Source of the DNA: an uncultured archaeon
Lineage (GTDB): Archaea > Asgardarchaeota > Lokiarchaeia > Sigyniarchaeales > SOKP01
Direction of reading: 5' to 3'
Assembly (NCBI GenBank): GCA_964632315.1
Contig: CAZWEM010000039.1
Location: forward strand, 1 to 46,337
DNA length: 46,337 nt
A model generated the notes under the pieces. The model was not told the DNA's origin and ran no database searches. It saw nothing but the letters and a program-made list of their open reading frames with translations. Position 1 is the first letter of the stretch. Each line of letters begins with the position of its first letter. The translations under genes and the position numbers were made by a program. Positions 2,148-28,841 of this stretch are shown piece by piece.

Positions 2148-2387
2148 TTACTTTACAGCCTCAAAATATATGTACCACTGTTCATCATCTTCGAGATATT
2201 CTGTTCCTAAGTGCTTATGCTTTGTTTGTTTTTTTAAATCTCTCGGAACACTCTCGGACGCTGGCTTATAGTCTGTGATTACCTTTAAAACAGTACCTGG
2301 TCGCATTTTCATTAACTGTTTTTTAGTTTTTAATGCGGGTACTGGGCAGATTAAGCCACAGCAATTTAATTCTTCATCATATTTCAT
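2148..2387 (-). CDS. tusA: TusA/SirA-family sulfur carrier (last gene of Hdr cluster 1)
   Basis: LNCCGLICPVP (CPxP motif), GTVLKVITD; AAGGAG RBS upstream. Confidence 0.9.
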   Translation of the reverse strand: MKYDEELNCCGLICPVPALKTKKQLMKMRPGTVLKVITDYKPASESVPRDLKKQTKHKHLGTEYLEDDEQWYIYFEAVK

Positions 2388-2429: not shown

Positions 2430-4898
2430 TTAATCACATATTACTGAAAATAAGGGTTCGTCCATATTTTCTTCCGCTTTCATCTCTAATTGCATTAATT
2501 GAACCAACCGAAGCGCTTCGTACCTAACTTTTTTCGAATCAATTCCAGTTCTCTTTGCTATACTACTGATAGTAGAAGGCCCTTGGACATTGATATAATC
2601 CAATACCTGTTGTCTTGGAGTTTTCTCAAAAGTCATCAATTCTCTCTTTGACTTAAGATTAATGGCAGTTTTAAGTTGTTCTTCGTTCACTTCTCCTTGC
2701 TCAAATAGTCCTTTACCCATAGCTTGTTCGATAAGTTGTTTACCGCGATCAGTCCACACTACAACAGTAGTGAAACCTTTCTTTGAGCCGACTTCTCCTG
2801 CAGTTATGTCAGAATAAATCGCGGGAAAATCTTGACAATGAGAACAGAAATGATTGCAACTCAAACACCTTCTTGCCTCTTGTAGAGCCATATCTTCGTT
2901 CAATACCCTATCAATCTCGTCAAATGACCAATTTATCTCCTCAGTTGCGTCTTCTAATGATTCTGGTTTTAAAGAGTAATCTTTAGGAGGCTTTCTAGGT
3001 CCACTGAAAAATGCATTTGCTCGTTTATATCTCCCATCTGCTAAGTCTTCTCCCTTTAGATACCTATCAATCGATATTGCTGCTTCTTTTCCGTGAGAGA
3101 TTGCAGCAATGGCTACGGCTTTTGAATTGCTGACGATATCTCCGCCGGCAAAAACTCCTGGTATGTTTGTTTCAAATGTAGTCTCGTCTATTTTGATCTT
3201 GTTTCGCTCTTTTTCTAAGTCACTGTTTGTTGCAGCATCAATTTGATTAAAATCAACTGCTTGACCAACAGCTATAACTATATTGTCCACGGGGATTTCA
3301 TAGTCAGTATCTTCAACTTTATTCAATGGTTTTCTTCCGTTCTCATCCGGCGTTCCCCATTCGATGTTGTAACAATTCAGTACTAACTTGCCTTCTTTAT
3401 TCTGAGTGATTTTAGCAGTGGAACTCTTGAAGTGATATTGAATGAACTCCATTTCACTTTCGGGGATTTCCCTTAGAACTAATTCTAATTCTTTTTCAGA
3501 CATTATATCTACTAAGTGTACTTTCTCAGCGCCTAGTCTTAAGGCTGTTTGAGCAACATCTACTGCAACAGGTCCTCCTCCGATTACACCAATGGATTTT
3601 CCTTTAAATTCTTCTTTATTTTCCCAATATCGATATTTTCTGTCCATTAAGAAATTTATTGCGACGAATACATTTGGTAGATCTTCTCCTTCTAAATGTA
3701 AGGTTCGAGGCTTATATTGCCCAGTAGCTATGAATACAGCTTCAAATGCGTTGTTTTTTAAATCTTCTATCGTCATATCAGGACCTAATGGTTTGTTTAG
3801 TTCTACTTCAATTCCGGATTCTATGATTTTTTGAACATCGTAATCTAATACATAGTTGGGCAATCTAAATTGTGGAACTCCAAATCGTAACATGCCACCA
3901 AGCTTATCGGTTTTTTCAAATATCGTAGGAGCGTATCCCCGTTTCCTTAAGAAAAAAGCAGCGGTTAGACCTGCAGGACCAGAACCTACAATAGCCACCT
4001 TCTTTGCGTTCTTTCTTAATTTTGGTGTCTTTTTTGAACTCTTTTTTGCTTGTTCAATCTCCCATTCTGTTACAAATTTCTTTAACTCCCGAATTGCAAC
4101 AGGATGGTCGTCCCCTATTAAAGTGCAGCCAAACTCACACTCATTTGTACAAATTCTACCACAAATAGAAGGAAGTGGATTGCTTTCTCTTATTAAGTTC
4201 ACTGCTTCTTGATATTTACCTTCACGTATCAATGAAATATACCCTTGAGCGTTAACGCCCGAGGGACAGTTATTACAGCAGGGTGAACATACTAAACCTT
4301 TATCTGTTGCTTCGGTTCGAATTTGTGAATTGCAAAATAGTCCAATTTTCAAGAGATCACGCTTCATTTCTTCTGCAATTTCGGCAGCTCCACGCATCTC
4401 ACACGGCACGCCGACAATTCCTATTTGATCAAATGTTTCACCTGTGAGTTCAACGAGTCGCTTTAAAACTCCTGATCTACCATAAACCACTCCCGCTTTC
4501 TGAACTACTTCCCTTGGATCGTTTACGATTTCGGCTATTGGTTTTTCTTCTTCTTCCTGTACCATGACGACATTCTTAAGGGTCTGATTTTCTAGTAATT
4601 CTTTAACGAAAGTAGTAACAAATCCTCCACTTGAAGCTTTAGCCTGAATCTCAGGATCTTTAGTTCTCAAGGAATATACCGCTAGGGGTTGCTTTTCTTT
4701 AAACTTCTTTTGAATTACTTGTGGGCATGTTTGATAACATTTTCCACAATCTTGGCCATCTCTCTCTAAGATACAATAATCTTTAAGAGTTGGGCGTCTT
4801 ACTTCCATTTCAATGTGCTTACAAGATCCAGCACATAGTCCACACCCTTGGCATAATCCCGCATCTACTATTTCAGATTTTAATAATGTAAAACTCAT
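2430..4898 (-). CDS. Ferredoxin-FrhB (FpoF-like) protein with an inserted GltD/NfnB-like FAD/NAD(P) oxidoreductase and a C-terminal winged helix
   Basis: N-terminal CQGCGLCAGSC/CGKCYQTCP; FrhB motifs SSGGFVT, GIVGVPC, IGLFC; GltD-like region CPSGVNAQGY, CGRICTNECE, VAIVGSGPAG, GGMLRFGVP, GVFAGGD, EARRCLSC; FrhB resumes with CSHCQDF..SDITAG.VGS..GFTTVVVWTDRG. Confidence 0.85.
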   Translation of the reverse strand: MSFTLLKSEIVDAGLCQGCGLCAGSCKHIEMEVRRPTLKDYCILERDGQDCGKCYQTCPQVIQKKFKEKQPLAVYSLRTKDPEIQAKASSGGFVTTFVKELLENQTLKNVVMVQEEEEKPIAEIVNDPREVVQKAGVVYGRSGVLKRLVELTGETFDQIGIVGVPCEMRGAAEIAEEMKRDLLKIGLFCNSQIRTEATDKGLVCSPCCNNCPSGVNAQGYISLIREGKYQEAVNLIRESNPLPSICGRICTNECEFGCTLIGDDHPVAIRELKKFVTEWEIEQAKKSSKKTPKLRKNAKKVAIVGSGPAGLTAAFFLRKRGYAPTIFEKTDKLGGMLRFGVPQFRLPNYVLDYDVQKIIESGIEVELNKPLGPDMTIEDLKNNAFEAVFIATGQYKPRTLHLEGEDLPNVFVAINFLMDRKYRYWENKEEFKGKSIGVIGGGPVAVDVAQTALRLGAEKVHLVDIMSEKELELVLREIPESEMEFIQYHFKSSTAKITQNKEGKLVLNCYNIEWGTPDENGRKPLNKVEDTDYEIPVDNIVIAVGQAVDFNQIDAATNSDLEKERNKIKIDETTFETNIPGVFAGGDIVSNSKAVAIAAISHGKEAAISIDRYLKGEDLADGRYKRANAFFSGPRKPPKDYSLKPESLEDATEEINWSFDEIDRVLNEDMALQEARRCLSCNHFCSHCQDFPAIYSDITAGEVGSKKGFTTVVVWTDRGKQLIEQAMGKGLFEQGEVNEEQLKTAINLKSKRELMTFEKTPRQQVLDYINVQGPSTISSIAKRTGIDSKKVRYEALRLVQLMQLEMKAEENMDEPLFSVICD

Positions 4899-4900
4899 GT

Positions 4901-6136
4901 TTATCCCTCTTTTATTTTAATTTCTTTTACAATACCCGTTGAATCAATCGTAAATTCAACTGAGCCGTTTTTATAAGTTCCCTCAACCACATCAAAAACG
5001 TGGGTTTTATATTGTTCAAAATTATCTTTATCGTTAATTTGTGTCTTGAACCCTCCATAATATAGATTAGATAAGTTCATGTTTCCCGCTATTTTTCTAA
5101 TATTATCGGTGACTTCTTTGTATTTTTTTGGATCTTTATTTTCAATGGCTTCTGTTAGCTCCGATTCTAAATTCAGTAAATTCTTTCTATATTGTTTAGT
5201 GGTTTCACTCACATCGATATTATTTGCTTGTTCGTAGGTTTCAATAATTTTAAGCGTTAGAGTTATTGAATGATCTCCACCTAATAAACCTGAAATTAAG
5301 GGCAACTCTTCAATTAATCTCCCCATAAATACATCTTCTAATAAGCTTCCTGATGAGGTTAACCTCCCTTTAGGTAAACCTGATGTGGGAAGTGTAAATC
5401 TAAAGAAATTTCCCAATACGTCTGGTAAGCTCTCTGTAATATCATCATCTCTATCTGCCAATTTATCTGTGGCTCCTTTCTCAGAATGTTCTGTGGCAAC
5501 TTCGATATTACCCATTAATGTACCAAACATGCCTAGCATTCGAACTCCTGAGCGTTCAATCGTTGGTTTACAGCCACGACACGGAGTATCATAGTCTATA
5601 CATCGTTCTTTACATTCTTTAGCAATAAAACCATTACAAAGATATCCAAGATCGTTAAAACAAGTCTCTTCGTCATCTAATTCGATTTGACGCTTAACTT
5701 GTTCTAAGTAATCACAAGTTTTCCGACGACCACATACCGTGCATAAATTTTTCAATTTAGGTAATTCTTCACCTTTAATCTCAGATTGAAGTTCTTCAAT
5801 CTCACCTAAACAACCATGAACATTTATCACACCGTCGACTATACCTTGTAAAGGCGTCACTTCATGACCTCGTTGATTTGATAAGGCAAAGACTCCTCCT
5901 GTGGTCGTACAATCTCCATAAGCAATCATCTTCGTTGAATTTACTTTTATCTTGTTCAAAATCTCCTTATCATCTGGTAATAAATAACCCGTGATTACAG
6001 AGACATCTGCTTTTTGCTCTTTCCAATTTTTAGGATCAGAAACAAATTCTACTTTATAATCGGAATCACCTTTCAATAATATGCTTTCGTTAAAGCATTT
6101 ATTGCATCCGTTAAATTGAAAGACTTTAACATCCAT
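4901..6136 (-). CDS. MvhG/VhuG-like hydrogenase small subunit with a ~145-aa C-terminal extension resembling a degenerate large-subunit fragment
   Basis: GCNKC, YGDCTTTGG, HGC, LCTVC, CFNDLGYLCNG, PCRGC and FFRFTLP are MvhG-type motifs; extension covers residues ~265-411. Confidence 0.8.
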   Translation of the reverse strand: MDVKVFQFNGCNKCFNESILLKGDSDYKVEFVSDPKNWKEQKADVSVITGYLLPDDKEILNKIKVNSTKMIAYGDCTTTGGVFALSNQRGHEVTPLQGIVDGVINVHGCLGEIEELQSEIKGEELPKLKNLCTVCGRRKTCDYLEQVKRQIELDDEETCFNDLGYLCNGFIAKECKERCIDYDTPCRGCKPTIERSGVRMLGMFGTLMGNIEVATEHSEKGATDKLADRDDDITESLPDVLGNFFRFTLPTSGLPKGRLTSSGSLLEDVFMGRLIEELPLISGLLGGDHSITLTLKIIETYEQANNIDVSETTKQYRKNLLNLESELTEAIENKDPKKYKEVTDNIRKIAGNMNLSNLYYGGFKTQINDKDNFEQYKTHVFDVVEGTYKNGSVEFTIDSTGIVKEIKIKEG

Positions 6137-6584
6137 CTTTAACTGTCCCCTCCTCTCTTATTGCTGTAGCTAAACGCTCTACTAAATCTTCAAAATCTCC
6201 GACCGCAGTTTCTCCTTCTCCTGCTCGTGCAGTATATTGATTTACAAACTGATCGCTGTATCCTAATTCTTTGAATACTTTTTTCAGAAGTTTAATTCTG
6301 TGCATCGAAAGAATATTACCATTAAAAAAGTGGCAAGCACCTATACAACAACCTATACAGGCTACAGCATCAGCACCATTATCAATTGCGTCCATTATTT
6401 GAATCGGGCCAACTTGTCCCGTGCATTGAACTCTAACAATACGTATAGCTGGATTATAGGCCATTCGGGCTACACCAGCTGTATTTGCTGATCCTTGACC
6501 GCATTCGTTGCACATGAATACCACAATATTTTCCATTTTCTCGAGCACTTCAGGCTCAATAACTTCACACTCTATTTCAGTCAT
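6126..6584 (-). CDS. mvhD: MvhD-like [2Fe-2S] adaptor subunit
   Basis: FMCNECG..SANTAG, IRIVRVQCTG, GADAV, GCCIGACHF..GN. Start moved to ATG 6584, which follows GGAGGTG and overlaps the hdrA stop. Confidence 0.88.
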   Translation of the reverse strand: MTEIECEVIEPEVLEKMENIVVFMCNECGQGSANTAGVARMAYNPAIRIVRVQCTGQVGPIQIMDAIDNGADAVACIGCCIGACHFFNGNILSMHRIKLLKKVFKELGYSDQFVNQYTARAGEGETAVGDFEDLVERLATAIREEGTVKDGC

Positions 6585-8607
6585 CTGCACATACACCTCC
6601 ACCGCCTGATACGGCGATTATTTCATCTAATAATTGTTCATCACTAAAGTTTAGCAATTGAATTGCTCCTGTAGGACATGCAGGCATGCACATACCACAA
6701 GATTTACACGCAATTTCGTTAATCATGGGTGTTCCATCATCATTCATTTGAATAGCTGCAGGAGAACACACAGTTTTACATAATCCGCATCTAACGCATA
6801 AATCTAAATCTACGGATGGAACCAACATTTCCTTCTCAATGTATCCTTTTACTAATGGAGCAGCAGCAATCGCTGCAGCGCTTCCTGCCTGAGCAACTGA
6901 CTCCGAAATATCTTTAGGTCCTTGAATCGCTCCTGCTAAAAAGATACCGCCTTTACTACTTAAAGTAGGGTTCATTTTTATGTGGAATTCTTTAAGAAAT
7001 CCTTCTTTAGATCGCAATACTTGAAGTTTTGATCCTAAAGGACCTATTCCCTCAGGTGGAACCATTGCAGCAGAAAGTACGACTAAATCTCCTTTAAGCA
7101 GTAAAGGTGTTTGACTTAGAGTATCTTCAACGCTCACAATTAACTCTCCCGAGACTGGGTCTTTAATGATTTCTGAAGGCCTCCCTCTAATGAAACGCAC
7201 TCCAACTTCTTGAGCAGACTTGTAGAGCTCCTCAAAATTCAATCCAGGAGTCCTAACGTCGATATAACATATGGTAACATTTGAGTTAGGATACATTTCT
7301 TTAATAATTCTAGCATTTTTAACTGCAAATTTACAGCACACGCCAGTACAATATTTATTCCCTACCTGATCGTTTCTGCTTCCGACGCATTGGATCATTA
7401 CCACGTTCTTTGGTATTTTTCCATCCGATGGTCGTAAAACTTGACTATTCGTAAGTGATCCCGGAGCTAGCATTCGTTCTACTTGAAGTTGTGTTAAAAC
7501 GTTTTCATATCCTTCTTGTTTATAATGATATGGTTCAATCTCTGAAGGGTCATATTCATCGTATCCTACAGCCACTACTATAGAGCCTACTTTAAATCTT
7601 TTAGTTTCTGGTTGCATTGAAAAATCAACGGCTTGAACTGGGCACACGTTAACGCAAGTATTACATTCAATACAATCCTTTTTTGATCGAACATAAGTTG
7701 CTGGAATAGCTTGCGGATAAGCTTTATAAATAGCGTGTCTCATTGACATTCCTGAATCCCACTCACTGGGAACTTCAACCGGACAATTAGCTGCACATTC
7801 TCCGCACGAAGTACAATTATCTTTAACATATCGTGGCTTGATTTCTACTTCCACCTCAAAATTGCCCATTGAACCCTCAACTTCTTTTATCTGTGCATTC
7901 GTATAAAGTTCGATTAATGGATGGTTCGCAACTCCATTAGTAAGGGGTGAAATTGAACATTGTGGGCATTCCAAAGTGGGAAATGTTTTATTTAATTGAG
8001 TCATGTGTCCTCCTATCGTTGATTTTCGCTCTATAAGGTAGACCGGGATTCCTAATTCCGCTAGATCGTTAGATGCACGAAGCCCAGCAATCCCTGCACC
8101 AATTACCAGAGCTGCTTTTGTAGTGGATATCTTACGTGTTTCTACATCTTGTAATTTTCTCGCTCTATTAACTCCAGCCTCAATTAATCGCTTTGCCTTT
8201 AGTGTAGCTTTTTCTTTCTCCTTTTGATGCACCCAACTGTCAAATTCTCGTATATTTACTTGCTGGTGACGATGTTTGTTTAATCCCATTTCTTGGATAG
8301 TATTAGCGAATGTTCTCCCATGTTGATTTTTTGAACACGAAGCCACCACTGTCCTATTAACTCCTAGCTCTTCAATCGAATCCTTCAGCATTTGTACTCC
8401 TGGCTTACTGCACATGAACATGTAATGTTCTGCTTTTACTACATTTGGCAACGTTGAGGCATATTTCGCAACTTCTTCCACATCTACAGTTCCAGCAATG
8501 TTATGGCCACAATGACATACAAACACTCCGATTCTAGGTTCCTCCGATTTTTCTTCTGTTTCGCCTACTTTTTCGGTACTTTTTACTTTTTGCTCTTTAA
8601 TTGTCAT
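6577..8607 (-). CDS. hdrA: Heterodisulfide reductase subunit A
   Basis: IGVFVCHCGHNIAG, GAGIAG, IGGHMTQLNKTFPTLEC, inserted and C-terminal ferredoxin motifs, IQCVGSR, YCTGVCC, GPKDI. Start ATG 8607 after GAGGAGG. Confidence 0.97.
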   Translation of the reverse strand: MTIKEQKVKSTEKVGETEEKSEEPRIGVFVCHCGHNIAGTVDVEEVAKYASTLPNVVKAEHYMFMCSKPGVQMLKDSIEELGVNRTVVASCSKNQHGRTFANTIQEMGLNKHRHQQVNIREFDSWVHQKEKEKATLKAKRLIEAGVNRARKLQDVETRKISTTKAALVIGAGIAGLRASNDLAELGIPVYLIERKSTIGGHMTQLNKTFPTLECPQCSISPLTNGVANHPLIELYTNAQIKEVEGSMGNFEVEVEIKPRYVKDNCTSCGECAANCPVEVPSEWDSGMSMRHAIYKAYPQAIPATYVRSKKDCIECNTCVNVCPVQAVDFSMQPETKRFKVGSIVVAVGYDEYDPSEIEPYHYKQEGYENVLTQLQVERMLAPGSLTNSQVLRPSDGKIPKNVVMIQCVGSRNDQVGNKYCTGVCCKFAVKNARIIKEMYPNSNVTICYIDVRTPGLNFEELYKSAQEVGVRFIRGRPSEIIKDPVSGELIVSVEDTLSQTPLLLKGDLVVLSAAMVPPEGIGPLGSKLQVLRSKEGFLKEFHIKMNPTLSSKGGIFLAGAIQGPKDISESVAQAGSAAAIAAAPLVKGYIEKEMLVPSVDLDLCVRCGLCKTVCSPAAIQMNDDGTPMINEIACKSCGMCMPACPTGAIQLLNFSDEQLLDEIIAVSGGGGVCADD

Positions 8608-8608
8608 T

Positions 8609-9523
8609 TTATAATGCCTCCTCTTGTTTAATTTCCTCTCCCTTAAACAGGTACTCACGACCCATCATTTGGTATTGAAGACCAACAAATTCTTGATCCA
8701 TGCCCATTGCATAAGCCGTTAGTTGAGAGAGATGAATGACTGGATAGTCATAATTGCATCCTCTATTTTTATTCAAATAGTCCTGTCCTGTCTCAAATTG
8801 AAGGTGACAGAAAGGACATATATCTAATATGAAGTCTGGCTTGACTTCGTCTATATTTTCCATTTTTTCTTCGAAGATTGTCATGCTTGAGGTACCATCA
8901 TAAGCCTTTACGCCTCCACCAGCCCCACAACACGTGAGTTGCTCCTTGAATCTAACTGATTGAACTCCTAATGCCTCAAGATAATCTTCGATGATTGTTG
9001 GTCCTTCAGAACTTTCAATTTCTCTAATTCTAGTTGGCTTTAAGAAGTGACATCCATAATGGATCGCTGCTCGAGCATTAATCTTCCGTACGATGTGGTC
9101 TTCAATTCCCCAAGGTCCAATCTCATATCCGAGTACCTCTGCGATATGTCGCACCGTGATGGTCCCTTTGAATTCATAATCACCAAGCAACTTTAGTTTT
9201 GCATTCACCAATTCGCGGTGTTCTTCATTTTCTTTCAAGTGCTTGTTAATTTCTTGAAGGGTTCCAAAACATCCATTACACACAGTTAAGATATCAGCAT
9301 CCAGTTGTTCTGCTATGCATAAATTACGAGCACCAGCTACCATCCAATCAACCTTGTTAAAGGATCGAAATACACCTGGAGCAGGACAACAACCCGCTCG
9401 TTCCATGTCTAATAATTCATATCCTAACTTTTCCATGACATATTTGGTAGCCTTCTCTATTTGCGGATATCTGTTTGGCATTATACAACCGAGAAAAAAT
9501 GCAAATGTTTGTTCTTTTACCAT
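8609..9523 (-). CDS. hdrB: Heterodisulfide reductase subunit B (two CCG domains)
   Basis: FLGCIMPNRYP, CCPAPG, CNGC, HYGCH, CCGAGGG, CPFCHLQF. Confidence 0.96.
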   Translation of the reverse strand: MVKEQTFAFFLGCIMPNRYPQIEKATKYVMEKLGYELLDMERAGCCPAPGVFRSFNKVDWMVAGARNLCIAEQLDADILTVCNGCFGTLQEINKHLKENEEHRELVNAKLKLLGDYEFKGTITVRHIAEVLGYEIGPWGIEDHIVRKINARAAIHYGCHFLKPTRIREIESSEGPTIIEDYLEALGVQSVRFKEQLTCCGAGGGVKAYDGTSSMTIFEEKMENIDEVKPDFILDICPFCHLQFETGQDYLNKNRGCNYDYPVIHLSQLTAYAMGMDQEFVGLQYQMMGREYLFKGEEIKQEEAL

Positions 9524-9535
9524 TTTTTAGACCTC

Positions 9536-10093
9536 CTATTTCTCCTCTTCTTCCTCTTCTTCTACGGGAGGAAGTTCAAACATGTATTTTTCAAAATTTT
9601 TTAAATCTTTATCTTTCCCTTCTTCCTTGAATTTATACAAGGTTGGGGGAAGTTCTTCTAAACCTAACTCAACTCTTCGTTTTCTAACCTCGTCATTGAT
9701 CGGAACGGCATGACCCGTGTTTTTAAGATATCCAACCACTGCTCTATGATTAGGTGAAATGTTTCCTAATTTTGTGGCATAGTTTCTTAACTCCATGATC
9801 ACGTCCGTTGGACGCACGTCACGTGGACAGCGTTCATAACACTGATAACATGTAGTGCATAACCAAATGTCGGGGTCTTTAAGAACCGATAAATCTCCAA
9901 GAACTACTTTTCTAATGATATTTCGAGTTTTCAAGGCAGTCCAACGTCCTGATTCACAAGACGCCGTACACGTACCGCATTGGATGCACTGCCAAATATT
10001 GGTTCTTCTCTCAATCGAATTGAAGAATTCTTGGTCGAAATCATCATCAACCTTGAATTCCTTATGAGGTTCTTTTTCTTTAACGTCAGACAT
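9536..10093 (-). CDS. hdrC: Heterodisulfide reductase subunit C
   Basis: CIQCGTCTASC, IWLCTTCYQCYERCPR, TGHAVPIN, LGLEELPPT. Confidence 0.95.
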   Translation of the reverse strand: MSDVKEKEPHKEFKVDDDFDQEFFNSIERRTNIWQCIQCGTCTASCESGRWTALKTRNIIRKVVLGDLSVLKDPDIWLCTTCYQCYERCPRDVRPTDVIMELRNYATKLGNISPNHRAVVGYLKNTGHAVPINDEVRKRRVELGLEELPPTLYKFKEEGKDKDLKNFEKYMFELPPVEEEEEEEK

Positions 10094-10155
10094 TTTTTAT
10101 CACTCTTTTCTTTTTAAAAAATAAAAAAATTGTTTTAATTTTTATTATGTTTATT

Positions 10156-10584
10156 TTATAATGATACTATTTGTCCACCATCGCTCATTTCTAAGAATGA
10201 GGCGGCACCAACAGGTTCTTCAACAAAGTCATATAAGTCTTCTTTCTTAATTCCCATTAAGTCCATGGTCATTTGACATGGGTAAAGTTTCATGTTACCG
10301 CTCTCTACGGCTTCTTTAATCATGCCCCATGGATCCTCGATTCCAAACTTGGCCATCCTTTTCAGAAAGATCTTTGCACCCATGCCTTTCATTGGAAACG
10401 GCATCCCTGCTACTTTTGGCTTAAACTTTTTAGTTAGCAAATTTAGACCCCAGAATGTAAAAAAGAAGTTCATTTTAATATCCATTGCATCCCCTGTGGT
10501 TCCAAGGATCATCATCATTCCGAATTTCTCGAATGACTTGTCCTTTACAATAAAATTTACTGTTTCTACCATATTTTCCACCAT
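10156..10584 (-). CDS. DsrE2/DrsE-like sulfurtransferase
   Basis: FFTFWGL, YPCQMTMDLMG, VGAASFL. Confidence 0.9.
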   Translation of the reverse strand: MVENMVETVNFIVKDKSFEKFGMMMILGTTGDAMDIKMNFFFTFWGLNLLTKKFKPKVAGMPFPMKGMGAKIFLKRMAKFGIEDPWGMIKEAVESGNMKLYPCQMTMDLMGIKKEDLYDFVEEPVGAASFLEMSDGGQIVSL

Positions 10585-10669
10585 TTTTTATTATTTTTTT
10601 TATTTTATTCAATTTTTTAGCTTTTAGCTAAGCATAATTTTGTAAAAAAATTTTAATTTTAATCTTGGA

Positions 10670-11017
10670 TTATATCCAAGAGATTATTTTTTTAGAATTT
10701 TCTAATGCATCAACAAGCTCACTATATTCAGTGGGCTTCACTTTCTCGTGTAAATCTTCTAATGAAATGCCTCGTGCTTTCAAGTCTGGAGTTAGCGCAA
10801 ATACAGAAATATCTAGATTTAATAGTTCTTGATTTGCTAAGGGAATTTTTCCCTTCTTGTTATATCCAATCACGCCATCATGAATCAATGCCACTCCTAC
10901 TTTATCACTTTTCCTCACTTGAGTAGTAATTAGCGGTAACAACCTTTTCATTTGATTCCCTACCACTTCACTAAATCCAAAAAGATACAAGATGTCTAAT
11001 TCTTCCACTTTTCTCAT
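10670..11017 (-). CDS. DsrH/TusB-like protein
   Basis: LIHDGV, DLKARGI, EYSELVD..IISW. Start is ATG 11017 or GTG 11008, after AAGGAG. Confidence 0.8.
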   Translation of the reverse strand: MRKVEELDILYLFGFSEVVGNQMKRLLPLITTQVRKSDKVGVALIHDGVIGYNKKGKIPLANQELLNLDISVFALTPDLKARGISLEDLHEKVKPTEYSELVDALENSKKIISWI

Positions 11018-11022
11018 CTCCT

Positions 11023-11400
11023 TTAAAATCGAAAGCAAGTATCTGCTTGATCGATAAATTCAACAATTTCATCCATAGATACAACCTTTAAATTCTCATA
11101 TTCGATTAAATCGTCTCTTGTTAATCCCGCTACTTCCAAAGCAGTATCTAAAACGTATAAATCCAAGTCCGATAAGTCTGCCATTTCAATGACTTCATCA
11201 ACCGGATCTACCCCGACCGCAGTAGGTTCAGCATTTTTATTCAATAAATACACGGAATCCCCAGTAAACACCACTTTACATTCAATAAACTCTCCAAGTG
11301 CAACAAAACCAGAACCAATGCGGATCGCTTCTGCCGCTGAATTTTTTCCAACAGGGGATTGCTCGGTAACAATTACAACAGATTCTACCATTTCTTTCAC
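11023..11400 (-). CDS. DsrF/TusC-like protein
   Basis: QSPVG...AEAIR, VVFTGDSVY, GLTRDDLI; lies between the dsrE-like and dsrH-like genes. Confidence 0.8.
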   Translation of the reverse strand: MKEMVESVVIVTEQSPVGKNSAAEAIRIGSGFVALGEFIECKVVFTGDSVYLLNKNAEPTAVGVDPVDEVIEMADLSDLDLYVLDTALEVAGLTRDDLIEYENLKVVSMDEIVEFIDQADTCFRF

Positions 11401-11771
11401 GCTCCTGAACCAAATACGATTATTTTATCAGATTCTACCGACCAATTTGAAAAGTCACCTAATCCTTCTTCTGTGGCACATTCAATGAAATCATCTTCCT
11501 TTAATCCAGTTAAACTCACCCATGTGCTACAACCTGAAACAGGAACATCATTTTGAGAAGCGAAATCATGTATTTTCTTCGGAACATCCCTAATTGATGA
11601 GCCGCAACTAATATCCTTCTTTAGATTGTATACACCGGAACCAAAGAAGAAAAATCCCTTGATCTGATGCCCTTTAGCAATTAAAGCTTTTGAAAGCTCG
11701 ATTAGGGAATCAGTCGCCTGAAACTTGTAAGGCTCAGTGCTAATAAAGAACGAATACGTAGTCATCGACAA
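11397..11771 (-). CDS. DsrE/TusD-like sulfurtransferase
   Basis: TEPY, GHQIKGFFFFGSGVYN, candidate catalytic Cys in VSGCSTW, GLGDF...SDKIIVF. Confidence 0.85.
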   Translation of the reverse strand: MSMTTYSFFISTEPYKFQATDSLIELSKALIAKGHQIKGFFFFGSGVYNLKKDISCGSSIRDVPKKIHDFASQNDVPVSGCSTWVSLTGLKEDDFIECATEEGLGDFSNWSVESDKIIVFGSGA

Positions 11772-11790
11772 ATTCCTCCTTCTTTATTGC

Positions 11791-12015
11791 TTAATTCTTC
11801 TTGATTAAGAAAGTGACTTTTGCATCCTCTTCGTTAGTATTAACTAACTCGTCGCCAGTTTTGCTTAAAAGAGCAGGCACATCTTTCAAAGCCCCCTTAT
11901 CATCAACGATAAGCTCTAAGGTTTGACCAGAAGCCATTTTTTTCAGCTCTTTCTTGGTTAAAAGCACTGGCATTGGGCATTTCTTACCCATCGCATCAAG
12001 TGTGATATCAGCCAT
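11791..12015 (-). CDS. tusA: TusA-family sulfur carrier (first gene of Hdr cluster 1)
   Basis: TLDAMGKKCPMPVL, GQTLELIVDD..A..DVP. Confidence 0.93.
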   Translation of the reverse strand: MADITLDAMGKKCPMPVLLTKKELKKMASGQTLELIVDDKGALKDVPALLSKTGDELVNTNEEDAKVTFLIKKN

Positions 12016-18532: not shown

Positions 18533-18946
18533 TCACAAAGATACTATTTGCCCACCTTCAGACATCTCCAGAAAAGTGGCTGCTCCAACGGGTTCTTCAG
18601 TCCAATCAATCAAATCTTCACGCTTTACACCCATCAAACTCATTGTCATTTGACAGGGATATAATTTAACGTTACCGTTTTCGACTGCTTCTTTGATTAA
18701 TCCAAAAGGGTCCTCAATTCCAAACTTAGCCATTCTCTTTCGAAACATTTTCGCTCCTAAACCTTTCATTGGCCACGGCATTCCAGCTACTTTTGGCTTG
18801 AAATTCTTCTTTAAAAGATACAAACCCCAAAATGTAAAAAAGAAATTCATCTTTATATCCAATGCATCCCCAGTGCTCCCAAGGATCACCATCATTGCGA
18901 ATTTTTCAAATGACCTGTCCTTTACTATAAAATTTACACTATTCAT
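18533..18946 (-). CDS. DsrE2/DrsE-like sulfurtransferase, close paralog of 10156-10584
   Basis: Largely identical sequence, including FFTFWGL and YPCQMTM. Confidence 0.9.
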   Translation of the reverse strand: MNSVNFIVKDRSFEKFAMMVILGSTGDALDIKMNFFFTFWGLYLLKKNFKPKVAGMPWPMKGLGAKMFRKRMAKFGIEDPFGLIKEAVENGNVKLYPCQMTMSLMGVKREDLIDWTEEPVGAATFLEMSEGGQIVSL

Positions 18947-18960
18947 TTCATAATCACTTC

Positions 18961-19185
18961 TTAAGCTTTCTCGATATAAAAGAATATTTTATCATTTTCC
19001 TCTTTTGTCTCCAATAGTTTATCTCCAGTTTTACTTAATAAGGACGGGATATCTTTTAGTGCACCAACATCATCAGCTACAACCTCTAATTTATCACCAG
19101 AGTTCATTTTTCTTAATTCTTTTTTAGTTAGTAATACTGGCATGGGACACTTTTTCCCTATTGCATCAAGGGTTAATTCGGCTAT
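18961..19185 (-). CDS. tusA: TusA-family sulfur carrier with an apparent ATA start
   Basis: Frame extends upstream of the ORF call as (ATA)AELTLDAIGKKCPMP, 74 aa like the paralog at 11791-12015; GAGGTGA RBS 7 nt upstream. Confidence 0.85.
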   Translation of the reverse strand: MAELTLDAIGKKCPMPVLLTKKELRKMNSGDKLEVVADDVGALKDIPSLLSKTGDKLLETKEENDKIFFYIEKA

Positions 19186-24585: not shown

Positions 24586-25263
24586 TTATATATGTTTTAA
24601 GCGTGCAATTAATGGTTCCCAAAAGATTTCTTTATATTCCCCTGATTGCTTGATTTCATTAATGTTTAATGTGATAGCTTCTTGAGAACAAGCGTTAACG
24701 CAAGTACCGCATTTAATGCAATTTTTGCCATTATATGAAGGTTTTGATTTCCTTTTTGCGTTTTTATCTTGGGATTGTTCTTTGGTAAAGCATTCTGATG
24801 GACAAACGTTAACACAAGATAAACACGAGATACACTCATCCCAATCAACCTCAATGTTCCCGGTAATGTACACTTTTGCTTCAGTTTTAGGATTTTCGAG
24901 CTCAATTGTATCATATTCTAATTTGGGGACTATTTTTTTAGTTCTGATGGCAAAATCCTTTCGTTTAACATAGGTATTATTTTTTTTCAACCAAATCGCA
25001 GAAACAGGACACATGTATGCACAAGTTCCGCAAAAAGAGCAATCTCGTGGATTTGGAATTGAGGGAATGAGATCTTCTCTATTAATTCGAATTTTCCCTT
25101 CCATTTGCGAACTATAAATTACATGGTTAGGACATACTCTCGAACATATTCCACATCCAATACACTTACATTTATCAATTTCTATGGATTGTTCTTTATC
25201 ATAAAACTTTACTATCGTTTCATCAAATCGTTCATCCGGGATTCGTTTTACTCTAGGAAACAT
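24586..25263 (-). CDS. Polyferredoxin with four [4Fe-4S] motifs (FwdF/MvhB-like)
   Basis: CIGCGICSRVCP, CSFCGTCAYMCP, CISCLSCVNVCP, CIKCGTCVNAC; 4 nt after the hdrA stop. Confidence 0.9.
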   Translation of the reverse strand: MFPRVKRIPDERFDETIVKFYDKEQSIEIDKCKCIGCGICSRVCPNHVIYSSQMEGKIRINREDLIPSIPNPRDCSFCGTCAYMCPVSAIWLKKNNTYVKRKDFAIRTKKIVPKLEYDTIELENPKTEAKVYITGNIEVDWDECISCLSCVNVCPSECFTKEQSQDKNAKRKSKPSYNGKNCIKCGTCVNACSQEAITLNINEIKQSGEYKEIFWEPLIARLKHI

Positions 25264-25267
25264 TTAT

Positions 25268-27250
25268 TTAATAACCTCCATTTTCCAATTCTGAACTATT
25301 CAAGGTTGATTGTTCAATCATGGCATTTAACTGATTAGTCGCGAAATGATTCTGAACGATCGCCATGGATGGACAAGCACTAACACACGTCCCACATCCT
25401 TTACATAGTATTTTATTTATCTCGGCGATTTTCTCTGTTTCATTAAAACTAATGGCATTAAATGCACATACACTAATGCAGCTTTTACATCCGGCACACT
25501 TAAAATCAAGAACTGTTGAATAATATGGTTCAATCTCAATTTCCCCCGATGCCATTAAACCTGCTGCACATGAGGCTGCTGCTTTTGCTTGCGCTACCGT
25601 ATCAGGAATATCTTTAGGTCCTTGAACAGATCCAGCTATAAATATCCCTTCAGTTAAAGTCTCCACCGGACCTAATTTTGGATGAGCTTCCATTATGAAT
25701 CCATCTTCTGATCTCTGAACGTTAAAAATACGTGATATATGTTGCATATCCGATCTTGGCTCAAGAGCGACAGATAATACAAACATGTCTGCTTTTAATT
25801 CAATTTCTCGCTGTAATAAAGTGTCTTCTCCGCGAACTATGATATTTTGATCCTCATCTTCGAAGACTTCAGCAATTTTTCCCCTCACATACGTAATTCC
25901 ATAATCCAAACCCGCTCGATTGTAAAATTCCTCGTATCCTTTTCCGAAGGCTCTTATATCAATATAAAAGATATAAACTTTTGCTTCAGGATGTTTTTCT
26001 TTATATTGTCTCGCTTGCTTGGTTGCATACATGCAACATACTCTTGAGCAATATTTATGACCGTGCTCATTGAAATCTCTACTCCCAACACATTGTAAAA
26101 ATATAATACTCTTAGGTTCTTTCTTATCTGACGGACGTTTCACCTTGCCACTAGTTGGCCCAACTGAACTTAATAATCGTTCCATTTGAAAAGCAGTAAT
26201 TACGTTTTCATATTTACCGTATCCATATTGTTTTATCACGCTAGGATCGAAGGTTTGATAGCCAGTAGCCAAGATAATTGTTCCAACTTTGATTTTTGAA
26301 AACTTTTCTTTATCATCATACTCAATTGCGTTTACCGGACAAATTTCCTGACAGGCACCACATCTTATACAATGTTTCATATCTATGGTATACTTGTTAG
26401 GAACAGCTTGTGGAAAAGGAATATATGCTGCCTTACGACTTTTCATTCCTAGATCAAATTCATTTCCACACTCTACAAGGCATTCTTCCGCACAACTACC
26501 GCATCCCGTACAGGTTTCTTGATTAATATAATGTGGTTTGTGTCTTATAGTAACTTCAAAATTACCTACATAACCGTCAACGGATTCAACTTCTGAATAT
26601 GTATACAAATGAATGTTTTCGTTTCTTGCAACTTCTGCCGTCTTTGGGGTAAGAATGCAAGCTGAACAATCCATCGTAGGAAAGGTCTTATCTAATTTTG
26701 CCATGTTTCCTCCAATAGAAGGTTCTCTTTCTACTAAGTACACTTGGTAACCTTCTTTAGCCAATGCTAATGCAGAATTCATCCCTGCAATTCCACCACC
26801 AACTACTAAGCAAGAAGGCTCAACTGGAACTTTCGTAAGTTCTAATGGTTTTAATTCGGAAACTTTTGCAGCAGCCATCCTCACGTGATCTTTTGCTACT
26901 TCATAAGCACCTTCATGATCATTTAAATTGACCCAAGTTGCATGCTCACGGATGTTGGCTTGTTCAAATAAAAACTGATTTAATCCTGCCTCCTTACAAG
27001 TTAATCTAAAGGTATTTTCATGCATTCGAGGAGAACAAGCAGCTACAACAACTCGATTTACTAAACCATCTTCTATATCTTTTTGGATTAAGTTCTGTCC
27101 GTTTTCTGAGCACATGAACTTATAATTTCGTCCAACAACCACGTTAGGAAACTTTTCTGCTTCTTTAGACAATTTATCGACGTCAATAACACCTGCAATG
27201 TTAATTCCGCAATGACATACATATACTCCAACTTTTGGCTTATCCTTCAA
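25268..27250 (-). CDS. hdrA: Heterodisulfide reductase subunit A (cluster 2)
   Basis: VGVYVCHCGINIAG, DKTFPTMDCSACIL, QCVGSRD, YCSRVCCMY, GPKDIP. Likely TTG start at 27250 after AGGTGA. Confidence 0.97.
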   Translation of the reverse strand: MKDKPKVGVYVCHCGINIAGVIDVDKLSKEAEKFPNVVVGRNYKFMCSENGQNLIQKDIEDGLVNRVVVAACSPRMHENTFRLTCKEAGLNQFLFEQANIREHATWVNLNDHEGAYEVAKDHVRMAAAKVSELKPLELTKVPVEPSCLVVGGGIAGMNSALALAKEGYQVYLVEREPSIGGNMAKLDKTFPTMDCSACILTPKTAEVARNENIHLYTYSEVESVDGYVGNFEVTIRHKPHYINQETCTGCGSCAEECLVECGNEFDLGMKSRKAAYIPFPQAVPNKYTIDMKHCIRCGACQEICPVNAIEYDDKEKFSKIKVGTIILATGYQTFDPSVIKQYGYGKYENVITAFQMERLLSSVGPTSGKVKRPSDKKEPKSIIFLQCVGSRDFNEHGHKYCSRVCCMYATKQARQYKEKHPEAKVYIFYIDIRAFGKGYEEFYNRAGLDYGITYVRGKIAEVFEDEDQNIIVRGEDTLLQREIELKADMFVLSVALEPRSDMQHISRIFNVQRSEDGFIMEAHPKLGPVETLTEGIFIAGSVQGPKDIPDTVAQAKAAASCAAGLMASGEIEIEPYYSTVLDFKCAGCKSCISVCAFNAISFNETEKIAEINKILCKGCGTCVSACPSMAIVQNHFATNQLNAMIEQSTLNSSELENGGY

Positions 27251-28196
27251 CCGATTCACCTATTTTTTTGATAATTGGTTCAGTTGATATGAATGGTGGG
27301 ACTCCTGCAATTTCCTTGCTTTTCACTAACCCTACTTCCTCTGCAGTAAAACCTAAAGCTAAACCCAATAGCTGTGTATAATAAATTACTGGGATATTAA
27401 ATTTGTTTTCGTTTATATCTTTTGAAGAACTATTGATTTCTAACTGCCCTAAGTCGAATTGTAAGTGACAGAAGGGACAAGCCGTGATAATCGCCTCGGC
27501 TCCGACGTGTTCCATGTTCTTCAATTTTTCTTTCGTCATATCAAGTGACACATCCTTATACGCACTTCTCACACCACCTCCTGCTCCACAACACATGTTC
27601 TTGTCGCGGTAATCTAAGCTTTTCGAAAATGTAGCTTCCACCAATTCATCAAGAAATCGAGGTTCTTCCACATCGCAGTCCCATGGCCTATTTTCTGAAG
27701 GCTTTGTTAAATGGCATCCATAATGAACGGCTACATTCAGATTTAATTTCTCTTTTCGTCCATATTTTGTTCGTTGCCTGATCTTTTCAACGCCAATATC
27801 ATTATAAAGAATGTCCACTATGTGTCTAATCTCCACAGTACCCTTGAATTCTCTTCCAACTTTCGCTAATTGCGAATTTACAATCGCTCGTTTTTTAGGA
27901 TCATTTTTCAAGATGTTATTTACTTCAAGTAAACTTCCGTAGCAACCATTACACATTAAAGCGATATCAGTTCCGTTTTCCTCAGCGATGGTGATGTTTC
28001 GGGCGCCCAATAAAAGCCAAGAATCAATATCGAATCCTCGAAAAACTCCTGGAGCAGGACAACAACTCGCAGAATTCATTTCTTGTAATTCGATTCCAAG
28101 CTTATCAAAAACTTTTCTCGTGGCTCGTTCAATAAATGGATATCTGTTCGGAATTATGCAACCAAGAAACAACGAATATTTTAAATTTTGTTTCAA
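27240..28196 (-). CDS. hdrB: Heterodisulfide reductase subunit B (cluster 2)
   Basis: FLGCIIPNRYP, CCPAPG, CNGC, HYGCH, CCGAGGGVRS, CPFCHLQFD. Confidence 0.96.
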   Translation of the reverse strand: MKQNLKYSLFLGCIIPNRYPFIERATRKVFDKLGIELQEMNSASCCPAPGVFRGFDIDSWLLLGARNITIAEENGTDIALMCNGCYGSLLEVNNILKNDPKKRAIVNSQLAKVGREFKGTVEIRHIVDILYNDIGVEKIRQRTKYGRKEKLNLNVAVHYGCHLTKPSENRPWDCDVEEPRFLDELVEATFSKSLDYRDKNMCCGAGGGVRSAYKDVSLDMTKEKLKNMEHVGAEAIITACPFCHLQFDLGQLEINSSSKDINENKFNIPVIYYTQLLGLALGFTAEEVGLVKSKEIAGVPPFISTEPIIKKIGESVEG

Positions 28197-28217
28197 ACTA
28201 ATTCCTCTCCAATTTTA

Positions 28218-28841
28218 CTATAAAAATGGTAATACTTCAACTATAGCCTGTATATTGGTCATGTGTTTTGAAAGATAGTCTAATTCACTTTCATATTCGA
28301 CTTCTTTTTCTTCTTCTTGTCCAATTCCAACTAATTCATCAAAATGCGTGCTTTCTAAAAGAATTTGTATTTCTTTTACACCATTTGGGTTTGAATGAAC
28401 TGTTGGCGGTCTTGCTGGCAATTCGTGATATACTCTCAATGCTTCCCATTTTTCATTATCAATGGGTACGCCATGACCAGTTTTAAATAATTGATGACTA
28501 AGACTTACGTGGGTAGGGTGCATGTTGCCTTTTCTAACTGCTAAATTCCTCAATTGAATAATAGCATCGGTGACTGGTACCTTACGAGGGCATCGTTCAA
28601 GACAAGTATAACAAGTTGAACAAAACCAAATGTCTTTATCGTAGAGCACTTCTTCTAATCCTAATTGAACTTTTCTGATTATCGCTCGAGTAGTGAGTGC
28701 GGTTCTCCTACCAGATGGGCAACTTCCCGTACAATTTCCGCATTGTATGCAAGCTCCAATTTCTTTTAAACCAGCTTTTCTCATCTCATCAGAGAGATTA
28801 TCGGAAAAATTGGTTATTTTATCATATCGTAAATCACTCAT
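28218..28841 (-). CDS. hdrC: Heterodisulfide reductase subunit C (cluster 2)
   Basis: CIQCGNCTGSCPSGR, IWFCSTCYTCLERCPR, TGHGVPI, PPTVH. Confidence 0.95.
   Translation of the reverse strand: MSDLRYDKITNFSDNLSDEMRKAGLKEIGACIQCGNCTGSCPSGRRTALTTRAIIRKVQLGLEEVLYDKDIWFCSTCYTCLERCPRKVPVTDAIIQLRNLAVRKGNMHPTHVSLSHQLFKTGHGVPIDNEKWEALRVYHELPARPPTVHSNPNGVKEIQILLESTHFDELVGIGQEEEKEVEYESELDYLSKHMTNIQAIVEVLPFL

Follow-up and report, generated by a model that had tools for sequence, protein, structure and literature searches.

How are electrons delivered to a heterodisulfide reductase (Hdr) complex whose operon encodes no hydrogenase large subunit? Asgard archaea have a central place in those models of eukaryogenesis that rest on the disposal of reducing equivalents as H2, formate or sulfur, and the usual picture of their Hdr is an MvhADG-HdrABC hydrogenase complex. 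The question is raised by an operon on contig CAZWEM010000039.1 of assembly GCA_964632315.1, from an uncultured archaeon of the Lokiarchaeia (order Sigyniarchaeales, SOKP01); the 46,337 nucleotides analysed here are called the window below. A single open reading frame in it (2430..4898, minus strand) encodes an 822-residue protein, P0001, in which an FrhB-like domain carries a nested NfnB-like module and is followed by a winged-helix tail. Our preferred answer, to which we give a probability of roughly 0.55, is that P0001 is the NAD(P)H (reduced nicotinamide adenine dinucleotide, with or without phosphate), and probably NADH, input arm of a hydrogenase-independent HdrABC-MvhD bifurcating complex of Lokiarchaeia-type Asgard archaea. 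The operon thus presents a conserved Hdr whose input arm has a dedicated predicted NAD(P)H site instead of a hydrogenase large subunit, and the hypothesis is therefore directly testable by expression and assay.

Read from its N-terminus (all parts on the minus strand), P0001 begins with a ferredoxin domain of the Fer4 dicluster type (residues 10-60; 4719..4871), whose cysteines 16, 19, 22, 26, 42, 51, 54 and 58, for two [4Fe-4S] clusters, are all invariant. The N-half of the FrhB-like domain follows (residues 66-200; 4299..4703), with the flavin adenine dinucleotide (FAD) motifs SSGGFVTT and YGRSGV and the cluster ligands C166 (in GVPC) and C189 (in IGLFC). Next come a GltD/NfnB-like module (residues 204-684; 2847..4289), recognised by its motif series, by Pfam and by structural alignment, and the C-half of the FrhB-like domain (residues 685-758; 2625..2846), in which C685-x2-C688-QDF...SDITAGEVGS supplies the third and fourth FrhB cluster ligands. 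The chain ends in the winged-helix domain (residues ~759-822; 2433..2624). A first-pass annotation of this DNA had proposed that the FrhB-like domain is interrupted by a nested insertion and is not part of an end-to-end fusion, and the motifs it quoted are all in place (IGLFC at 185-189, CSHCQDF at 685-691, GGGPVA at 440-445, HLVDI at 461-465). P0001 passes the Pfam gathering cut-offs of both FrhB/FdhB families: FrhB_FdhB_N (PF04422) matches residues 74-146 (E 2.6e-13, 50.3 bits against a cut-off of 22), and FrhB_FdhB_C (PF04432) scores 64.8 bits against 23.3, but in two pieces, residues 157-200 covering profile positions 2-49 and residues 668-739 covering positions 80-149. The same split was recovered straight from the DNA by a six-frame search of the genome. 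An end-to-end fusion is ruled out for P0001 by these split halves around the insert, and the nested insertion is borne out further by orthologues that lack it (below). In the inserted part, Fer4_20 matches residues 199-283 (E 1.1e-21, 77 bits), Pyr_redox_2 matches residues 299-603 (E 3e-30, 106 bits), and the NfnB chain 4ylf_B matches the module at E 5e-73. None of the NCBIfam curated cut-offs was reached by P0001 (PRK12771, 408 bits against 516; PRK12814, 357 against 916), and the matches to these two models are confined to residues 203-688.

Conservation among 19 family members of 46-88% identity follows the same layout. Twenty cysteines are invariant, making five sets of four, and all eight motif cysteines of the GltD/NfnB-like module are among them; SGG, YGRSG, GVPC, GLFC and CxxCxDF are kept across the FrhB-like part of the family, and the FAD and NAD motifs of both flavin sites are conserved. 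One chain with two flavin sites, as first proposed, is therefore what the motifs describe; the part of that proposal that makes the FrhB-like site an F420 site fares less well, as discussed below.

Where the module entered the host domain can be read from seven loci of the Asgard family f31 (L003, L004 and L006-L010), at which the same operon holds an uninserted FrhB-like gene of 345-385 residues with the same winged-helix tail. These orthologues read GLFC-x17-GSCDHCTDF, which places the insert within a short loop that separates the second and third cysteine ligands of the FrhB cluster. The inserted form itself recurs widely: more than 120 P0001-like clusters (817-825 residues, 70-97% identity) were found on contigs from JGI, NCBI, ENA and Logan that all bear labels of Asgard metagenome-assembled genomes, and the independent contigs include two single-contig genomes. 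With a query made of the junction and tail (residues 640-822), full-length copies turned up in ~80 of 400 genomes from this phylum, almost all of them in the source genome's own order (its own family f1, f3 and f4; one genome in f16), and a library clustered at 50% identity added no more than two full-length representatives (55% and 46% identity). A chimeric assembly, which the first-pass annotation had named as a possible undoing of the architecture, is thus ruled out.

The same annotation called the module complete, and so it is, with the refinement that its order is circularly permuted. The motifs run PCxxxCP (206-212), CGRIC..CEFGC (246-258), GSGPAG (305-310, the FAD Rossmann fold), GGGPVA (440-445, the NAD(P) Rossmann fold), a linker, and EARRCLSC (674-681). 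In canonical NfnB (4ylf_B, 5jca_L) the stretch sF.E...EA.RCLxC stands directly before PC...CP; in P0001 it comes after the flavin domains. On the Fer4_20 profile, positions 4-35, at its start, are covered by residues 658-687 (...ALQEARRCLSC...) and positions 22-111 by residues 199-283. This permuted order is also that of the NfnABC large subunits (9n5u, 9bov) and of StnC (8oh5), which align from residue ~203 to residue ~684; judged by its sequence, the insert belongs to the circularly permuted type of NfnB whose structure is known from NfnABC and StnABC. RC678LSC681 and PC207...C211P form one contiguous cluster motif by homology, so that the two ends of the insert must, we infer, meet at a single iron-sulfur (Fe-S) cluster. 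Of the ligands of the host FrhB cluster, C166 and C189 precede the insert and C685 and C688 follow it, and C681 and C685 are four residues apart, which would make the distal cluster of the insert and the FrhB cluster neighbours. The arrangement amounts to natural domain engineering, in which a permuted redox cassette whose ends are predicted to meet at one Fe-S cluster has been placed between two ligands of a host cluster.

Structural alignment to an AlphaFold2 (AF2) model of the full chain agrees with this picture. The split FrhB halves, whose failure to reassemble would have spoken against the insertion, do come together in it: the FrhB chain 9r51_B aligns as one rigid body across model residues 67..758 (Z-score 21.7, root-mean-square deviation (rmsd) 2.9 A, 208 residues), and 6qgr_B (Z 21.1), ElpB 8rvu_E (Z 20.4) and FdhB 7bkb_E (Z 20.8) align likewise. 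The insert aligns with NfnABC, NfnB, GltD and DPD at Z 26-28, and the NfnABC chain 9bov_A with the model at Z 28.4 (397 residues, rmsd 3.9 A).

The place of P0001 in its operon points to Hdr. The order in the window is tusA-dsrEFH-dsrE2-hdrC-hdrB-hdrA-mvhD-mvhG-like-P0001-tusA, P0001 being second-to-last. On the minus strand, hdrB (CCG domains) and hdrC (Fer4 dicluster) lie at 8609..10093, an HdrA2-like hdrA (735 bits) at 6577..8658, mvhD (FlpD family) at 6126..6602, a gene for an MvhG-like [NiFe]-hydrogenase small-subunit homologue of 411 residues, with no adjoining large subunit, at 4901..6136, and the terminal tusA at 2148..2387; the mvhG-like stop codon is followed at once by the start codon of P0001. 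The order hdrC-hdrB-hdrA-mvhD-mvhG-like-[FrhB-like]-tusA was found at 14 loci, whole or as far as the contig reached, down to 46% identity, and at all 14 the FrhB-like protein takes the place of MvhA or FdhAB in the hdrCBA-mvhD-mvhG-like operon, as the first reading of the sequence had supposed. A complex prediction for the MvhG-like protein with residues 1-200 of P0001, from an alignment of 14 rows, scored 0.01 against a mark of 0.32 and weighs neither way.

The MvhG-like protein has all three cluster motifs and a conserved C-terminal extension of ~155 residues, and the MvhG-like and FrhB-like pair resembles FrhG and FrhB without FrhA. An orphan large subunit encoded elsewhere was considered as its partner and ruled out: each of the source genome's two [NiFe] large subunits, which lie outside this operon, is encoded next to a small subunit and Hdr genes of its own. 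These are canonical large subunits of the group-3 type (loci L015 on contig C11 and L016 on contig C7), and one of the two [NiFe]-linked Hdr sets has an HdrA-MvhD fusion of 853 residues. A second hdrCBA operon in the window itself (24586-28841, minus strand) shares 42-54% identity with the first and has neither mvhD nor an input module. The source genome therefore has at least four Hdr-type systems.

Which nicotinamide coenzyme the module would use is suggested by the end of its second Rossmann beta-2 strand. In solved NfnB, GltD and NfnABC modules this strand ends in Y-R-R, and YRR is kept in 13 of 15 modules of other hosts. The corresponding stretch of P0001 (residues 440-466; 3501..3581, minus strand) ends in HLVD464-I-M, so that the NADPH-type YRR expected after the second GxGxxA is absent, as had been noticed from the sequence at the outset. 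P0001 and its clade have D-I-M and their sister group has E-I-R or D-I-Q; on a tree of the inserts an acidic residue (D or E) at the position of the Y defines a derived clade that includes P0001, with support of 100, and YRR occurs among FrhB-nested modules only in L013 and P0122, which are basal. YRR is thus probably the ancestral state. By a classical general rule of the fold, an acidic side chain here goes with a preference for NAD(H), which suggests that the P0001 clade prefers NADH. L013 (8134-10605) and P0122 are basal on the insert tree and not on a tree of the host domains, which suggests two independent coenzyme switches or an exchange of modules.

If P0001 is the NAD(P)H input arm, electrons could take the following path. 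NAD(P)H, probably NADH in the P0001 clade, would donate a hydride to the nested module's FAD, from which single electrons would pass through the two [4Fe-4S] clusters of the module, one of them built by cysteines from both ends of the insert, to the FrhB-type [4Fe-4S] cluster, of whose ligands C189 and C685 flank the insert. They would then run through the two N-terminal [4Fe-4S] clusters, the three clusters of the MvhG-like protein and the [2Fe-2S] cluster of MvhD to HdrA's bifurcating FAD, where they would be split between HdrBC and ferredoxin. The substrate of HdrBC would be a disulfide or persulfide, perhaps carried by TusA or DsrE, and the pathway would probably be reversible. The FrhB-like part, with its FAD kept and the lid of its F420 channel lost, would act mainly as scaffold and junction, and F420 would not be a required substrate.

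Several observations weigh against this proposal. The conserved FrhB-like FAD site implies a role that an NAD(P)H arm does not fully cover, and the uninserted orthologues work without the NfnB module, so that their arm needs another donor or acceptor site. Binding of P0001 to the MvhG-like protein and Hdr is deduced from synteny alone, and the D/E-for-Y rule is a general Rossmann-fold rule carried over to the nested-module family. The AF2 model of the full chain is of moderate quality (mean predicted local distance difference test score (pLDDT) 67.8, predicted template modelling score 0.47), and all of its Fe-S binding stretches have pLDDT below 50.

The FrhB-like FAD also raises the matter of F420, since FrhB is known as an F420-dependent subunit. 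The access channel for F420 in FrhB is bounded by the main body and by a lid, residues 128-188 (PMC3930138). This lid corresponds to positions ~50-93 of Pfam FrhB_C, a segment that is missing from both the inserted and the uninserted forms, the latter having a 17-residue loop in its place. P0001 shares with solved FrhB and Fsr the fold (Z ~21), the FAD loops and the cysteine ligands, and its N-terminal two-cluster domain is equivalent to that of Fsr and of the Ethanoperedens FrhB-like subunits; it differs from FrhB in having no lid and in having relatives in genomes without F420 biosynthesis. In family f3 the inserted form is present in 6 of 14 genomes and cofH in none of the 14, and cofD was also not found in two single-contig f3 genomes; likewise, neither cofH nor cofD was found in five f31 genomes that carry the operon in its uninserted form, and three of these five are 97-98% complete. 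The strongly conserved FAD loops indicate that the flavin is still present, and the retention of both forms in genomes without cofH and cofD indicates that F420 is not its obligatory partner. P0001 thus departs from F420-dependent FrhB-type subunits both in the lid domain and in an occurrence that is not restricted to F420 makers, and the F420 reading of this flavin is doubtful: "FrhB" should not be read as "F420" for a lid-less subfamily that lives in genomes without F420 biosynthesis.

These findings bear directly on the rival that survives best, put forward in the first-pass annotation: a dual-coenzyme protein with F420H2 oxidation at the FrhB-like FAD and NAD(H) turnover at the NfnB-like one, the two pools equilibrating through the Fe-S junction and either feeding Hdr. 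The source genome carries cofH (475 bits, above its cut-off), cofD (318 bits) and about nine FrhB-family paralogues, has no Fno above the Fno cut-off, and belongs to a family in which 114 of 134 genomes have cofH; the FrhB FAD motifs are moreover under strong purifying selection. F420:NAD transhydrogenase activity is accordingly possible in the source genome. However, without a lid, and with both forms kept where F420 genes are missing, it cannot be the general function of the family, and members of the FrhB family are also present in control genomes of organisms that make no F420. We regard this alternative as unlikely, and as weaker than the NAD(P)H arm.

SudA/NfnI "sulfide dehydrogenase" activity is the model for a second alternative, in which P0001 works with TusA and not with Hdr, as an NAD(P)H:persulfide or polysulfide oxidoreductase whose FrhB-like FAD or cluster reduces TusA-bound sulfane sulfur. 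In most of the loci examined, inserted and uninserted alike, tusA is the next gene downstream of the FrhB-like one, dsrEFH and dsrE2 belong to the same operon, and an FAD without its lid would be open to a protein substrate. A preprint has in addition proposed that Asgard Hdr reduces TusA/DsrE persulfides (10.1101/2025.07.22.663070). Against such a role, HdrB with its CCG domains, an established disulfide-reducing site, is encoded in the same operon, the conserved set contains no redox-active cysteine pair beside either flavin, and the linkage of the gene to mvhG-like and mvhD is as tight as that to tusA; we consider it improbable. The window also contains a second tusA-dsrE2 pair (18533-19143, minus strand).

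Least probable of all is a second bifurcation site, at which the FAD of the nested module would send one electron to the FrhB-like FAD or another high-potential acceptor and the other into the Fe-S chain, giving two bifurcating flavins per complex: the closest solved relatives of the module are subunits of bifurcating NfnABC and StnABC (38% identity, Z 27-28) and two sites have also been proposed for ANME-1 HdrA-NfnB fusions (PMC9012536), but the operon has no NfnA-like [2Fe-2S]/FAD partner, in GltD the same module serves simply as an input wire for NADPH, and sequence gives no mark that separates a bifurcating from a non-bifurcating flavin.

The NAD(P)H-arm reading can be set in an evolutionary frame. 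In a tree of the host domains, built after the insert had been cut out, inserted and uninserted forms fall on opposite sides of one branch (support 89/86 and 93/95) and together form a clade (100/100) apart from the canonical FrhB paralogues of the source genome. In a tree of the inserts alone, every FrhB-nested module falls in one clade (Shimodaira-Hasegawa-like approximate likelihood-ratio test 99), whose sister is a module placed between HdrC-like dicluster and HdrB-like CCG domains; this sister group includes a 909-residue paralogue in the source genome that is 45% identical to the insert. A single acquisition of the insert is the simplest history. The two clades are sisters, and the trees alone do not settle insertion against deletion (loss in f31); insertion is preferred because the cassette recurs in other hosts, the same permuted form being nested in HdrA-like, HdrC/HdrB-like and formate-dehydrogenase-like proteins. 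Tentatively, and with less confidence than we have in the NAD(P)H arm itself, we suggest that the lid was lost from the FrhB scaffold and that a whole NfnB-type enzyme was spliced in at that place in one Asgard order, giving an NADH-driven, hydrogenase-independent Hdr that would bifurcate between ferredoxin and TusA/DsrE persulfides. If this is true, the archaea most closely related to eukaryotes, cultured strains included, would possess a route of energy coupling that had gone unrecognised.

Known complexes offer partial parallels. The nearest among characterised systems are the Elp-Hdr complex of Methanothermobacter marburgensis (ElpABC-HdrABC; PDB 8RVU) and the Fdh-Hdr complex of Methanospirillum hungatei (7BKB), in which an FrhB/FdhB-type subunit and MvhD feed HdrA (PMC12350162). 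The P0001 operon resembles both in having an FrhB/FdhB-type FAD/[4Fe-4S] subunit and MvhD in place of the Mvh hydrogenase as donor to HdrA, and resembles Elp-Hdr in having a catalytically dead relic as scaffold, although the scaffold is a hydrogenase small-subunit homologue here (the MvhG-like protein) and an FdhA relic (ElpA) there. ElpB and FdhB keep a complete FrhB_C and oxidise F420H2, whereas P0001 has a 480-residue NAD(P)H module at the place of the lid; the winged-helix tail, the tusA and dsrE genes of the operon and the non-methanogenic host set it apart as well. NfnABC (9N5U/9N5V, 9BOV) and StnC (of StnABC, 8OH5) share with P0001 the permutation, with PCxxxCP first and EA-RCLxC after the flavin domains, and the embedding of the module between other Fe-S domains of a large subunit; their modules are 36-38% identical to the insert (Z 27.6-28.4 over ~400 residues). 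Their hosts, in contrast, are formate-dehydrogenase-like or HydB-type subunits of transhydrogenases, while that of P0001 is an FrhB-like fold in an Hdr operon, and their modules keep YRR where P0001 has D-I-M. A precedent for the nested cassette is given by HdrA9-11 of ANME-1 archaea, in which an NfnB-like module of ~500 residues is nested in HdrA and has been proposed as an NAD(P)H-Hdr link (Chadwick et al. 2022, PMC9012536). There too the module sits within an Fe-S domain of an Hdr-complex subunit, but this domain is the inserted ferredoxin domain of HdrA and not FrhB, and the lineage and the insertion event are separate. A literature search, subscription journals not covered, found no description of an FrhB-nested NfnB architecture.

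The winged-helix character of the tail, likewise guessed at first sight, was confirmed by separate folding and a PDB search. Folded alone, the tail has a mean pLDDT of 81 and the topology H-(E)-H-H-E-E, and when it was compared with 48,161 PDB chains each of the 50 highest-ranked matches was a winged-helix domain, with Z 9.4-11.4 and rmsd values as low as 1.0-1.9 A across 56-63 residues; its Pfam matches are below the cut-offs. Its net charge ranges from -7 to +2 in 22 orthologues, that is, from acidic to about neutral, and helix 3 has basic residues that the uninserted orthologues do not keep. A part in docking or dimerisation appears more likely than DNA binding.

Related cassettes occur in other settings. 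On contig C9 of the source genome (46000-64000, locus L014) three genes are adjacent, at 5519-8248, 8398-9282 and 9284-12001 of the locus. The first encodes the 909-residue protein mentioned above, in which a permuted NfnB module stands between an HdrC-like dicluster and an HdrB-like CCG domain; it is the paralogue nearest to the insert. The second encodes a 294-residue NfnA-like protein (DHODB_Fe-S_bind). In the product of the third, of 905 residues, a ferredoxin domain, an FrhB that is complete with its lid, and a canonical NfnB are fused end to end. The trio may be an F420-linked Nfn. Finally, the search of representative sequences returned P0130, an HdrA-MvhD fusion of 1172 residues in which the FlpD profile ends at position 83 of 123 and a permuted NfnB module follows directly, so that the cassette may here be nested in MvhD.

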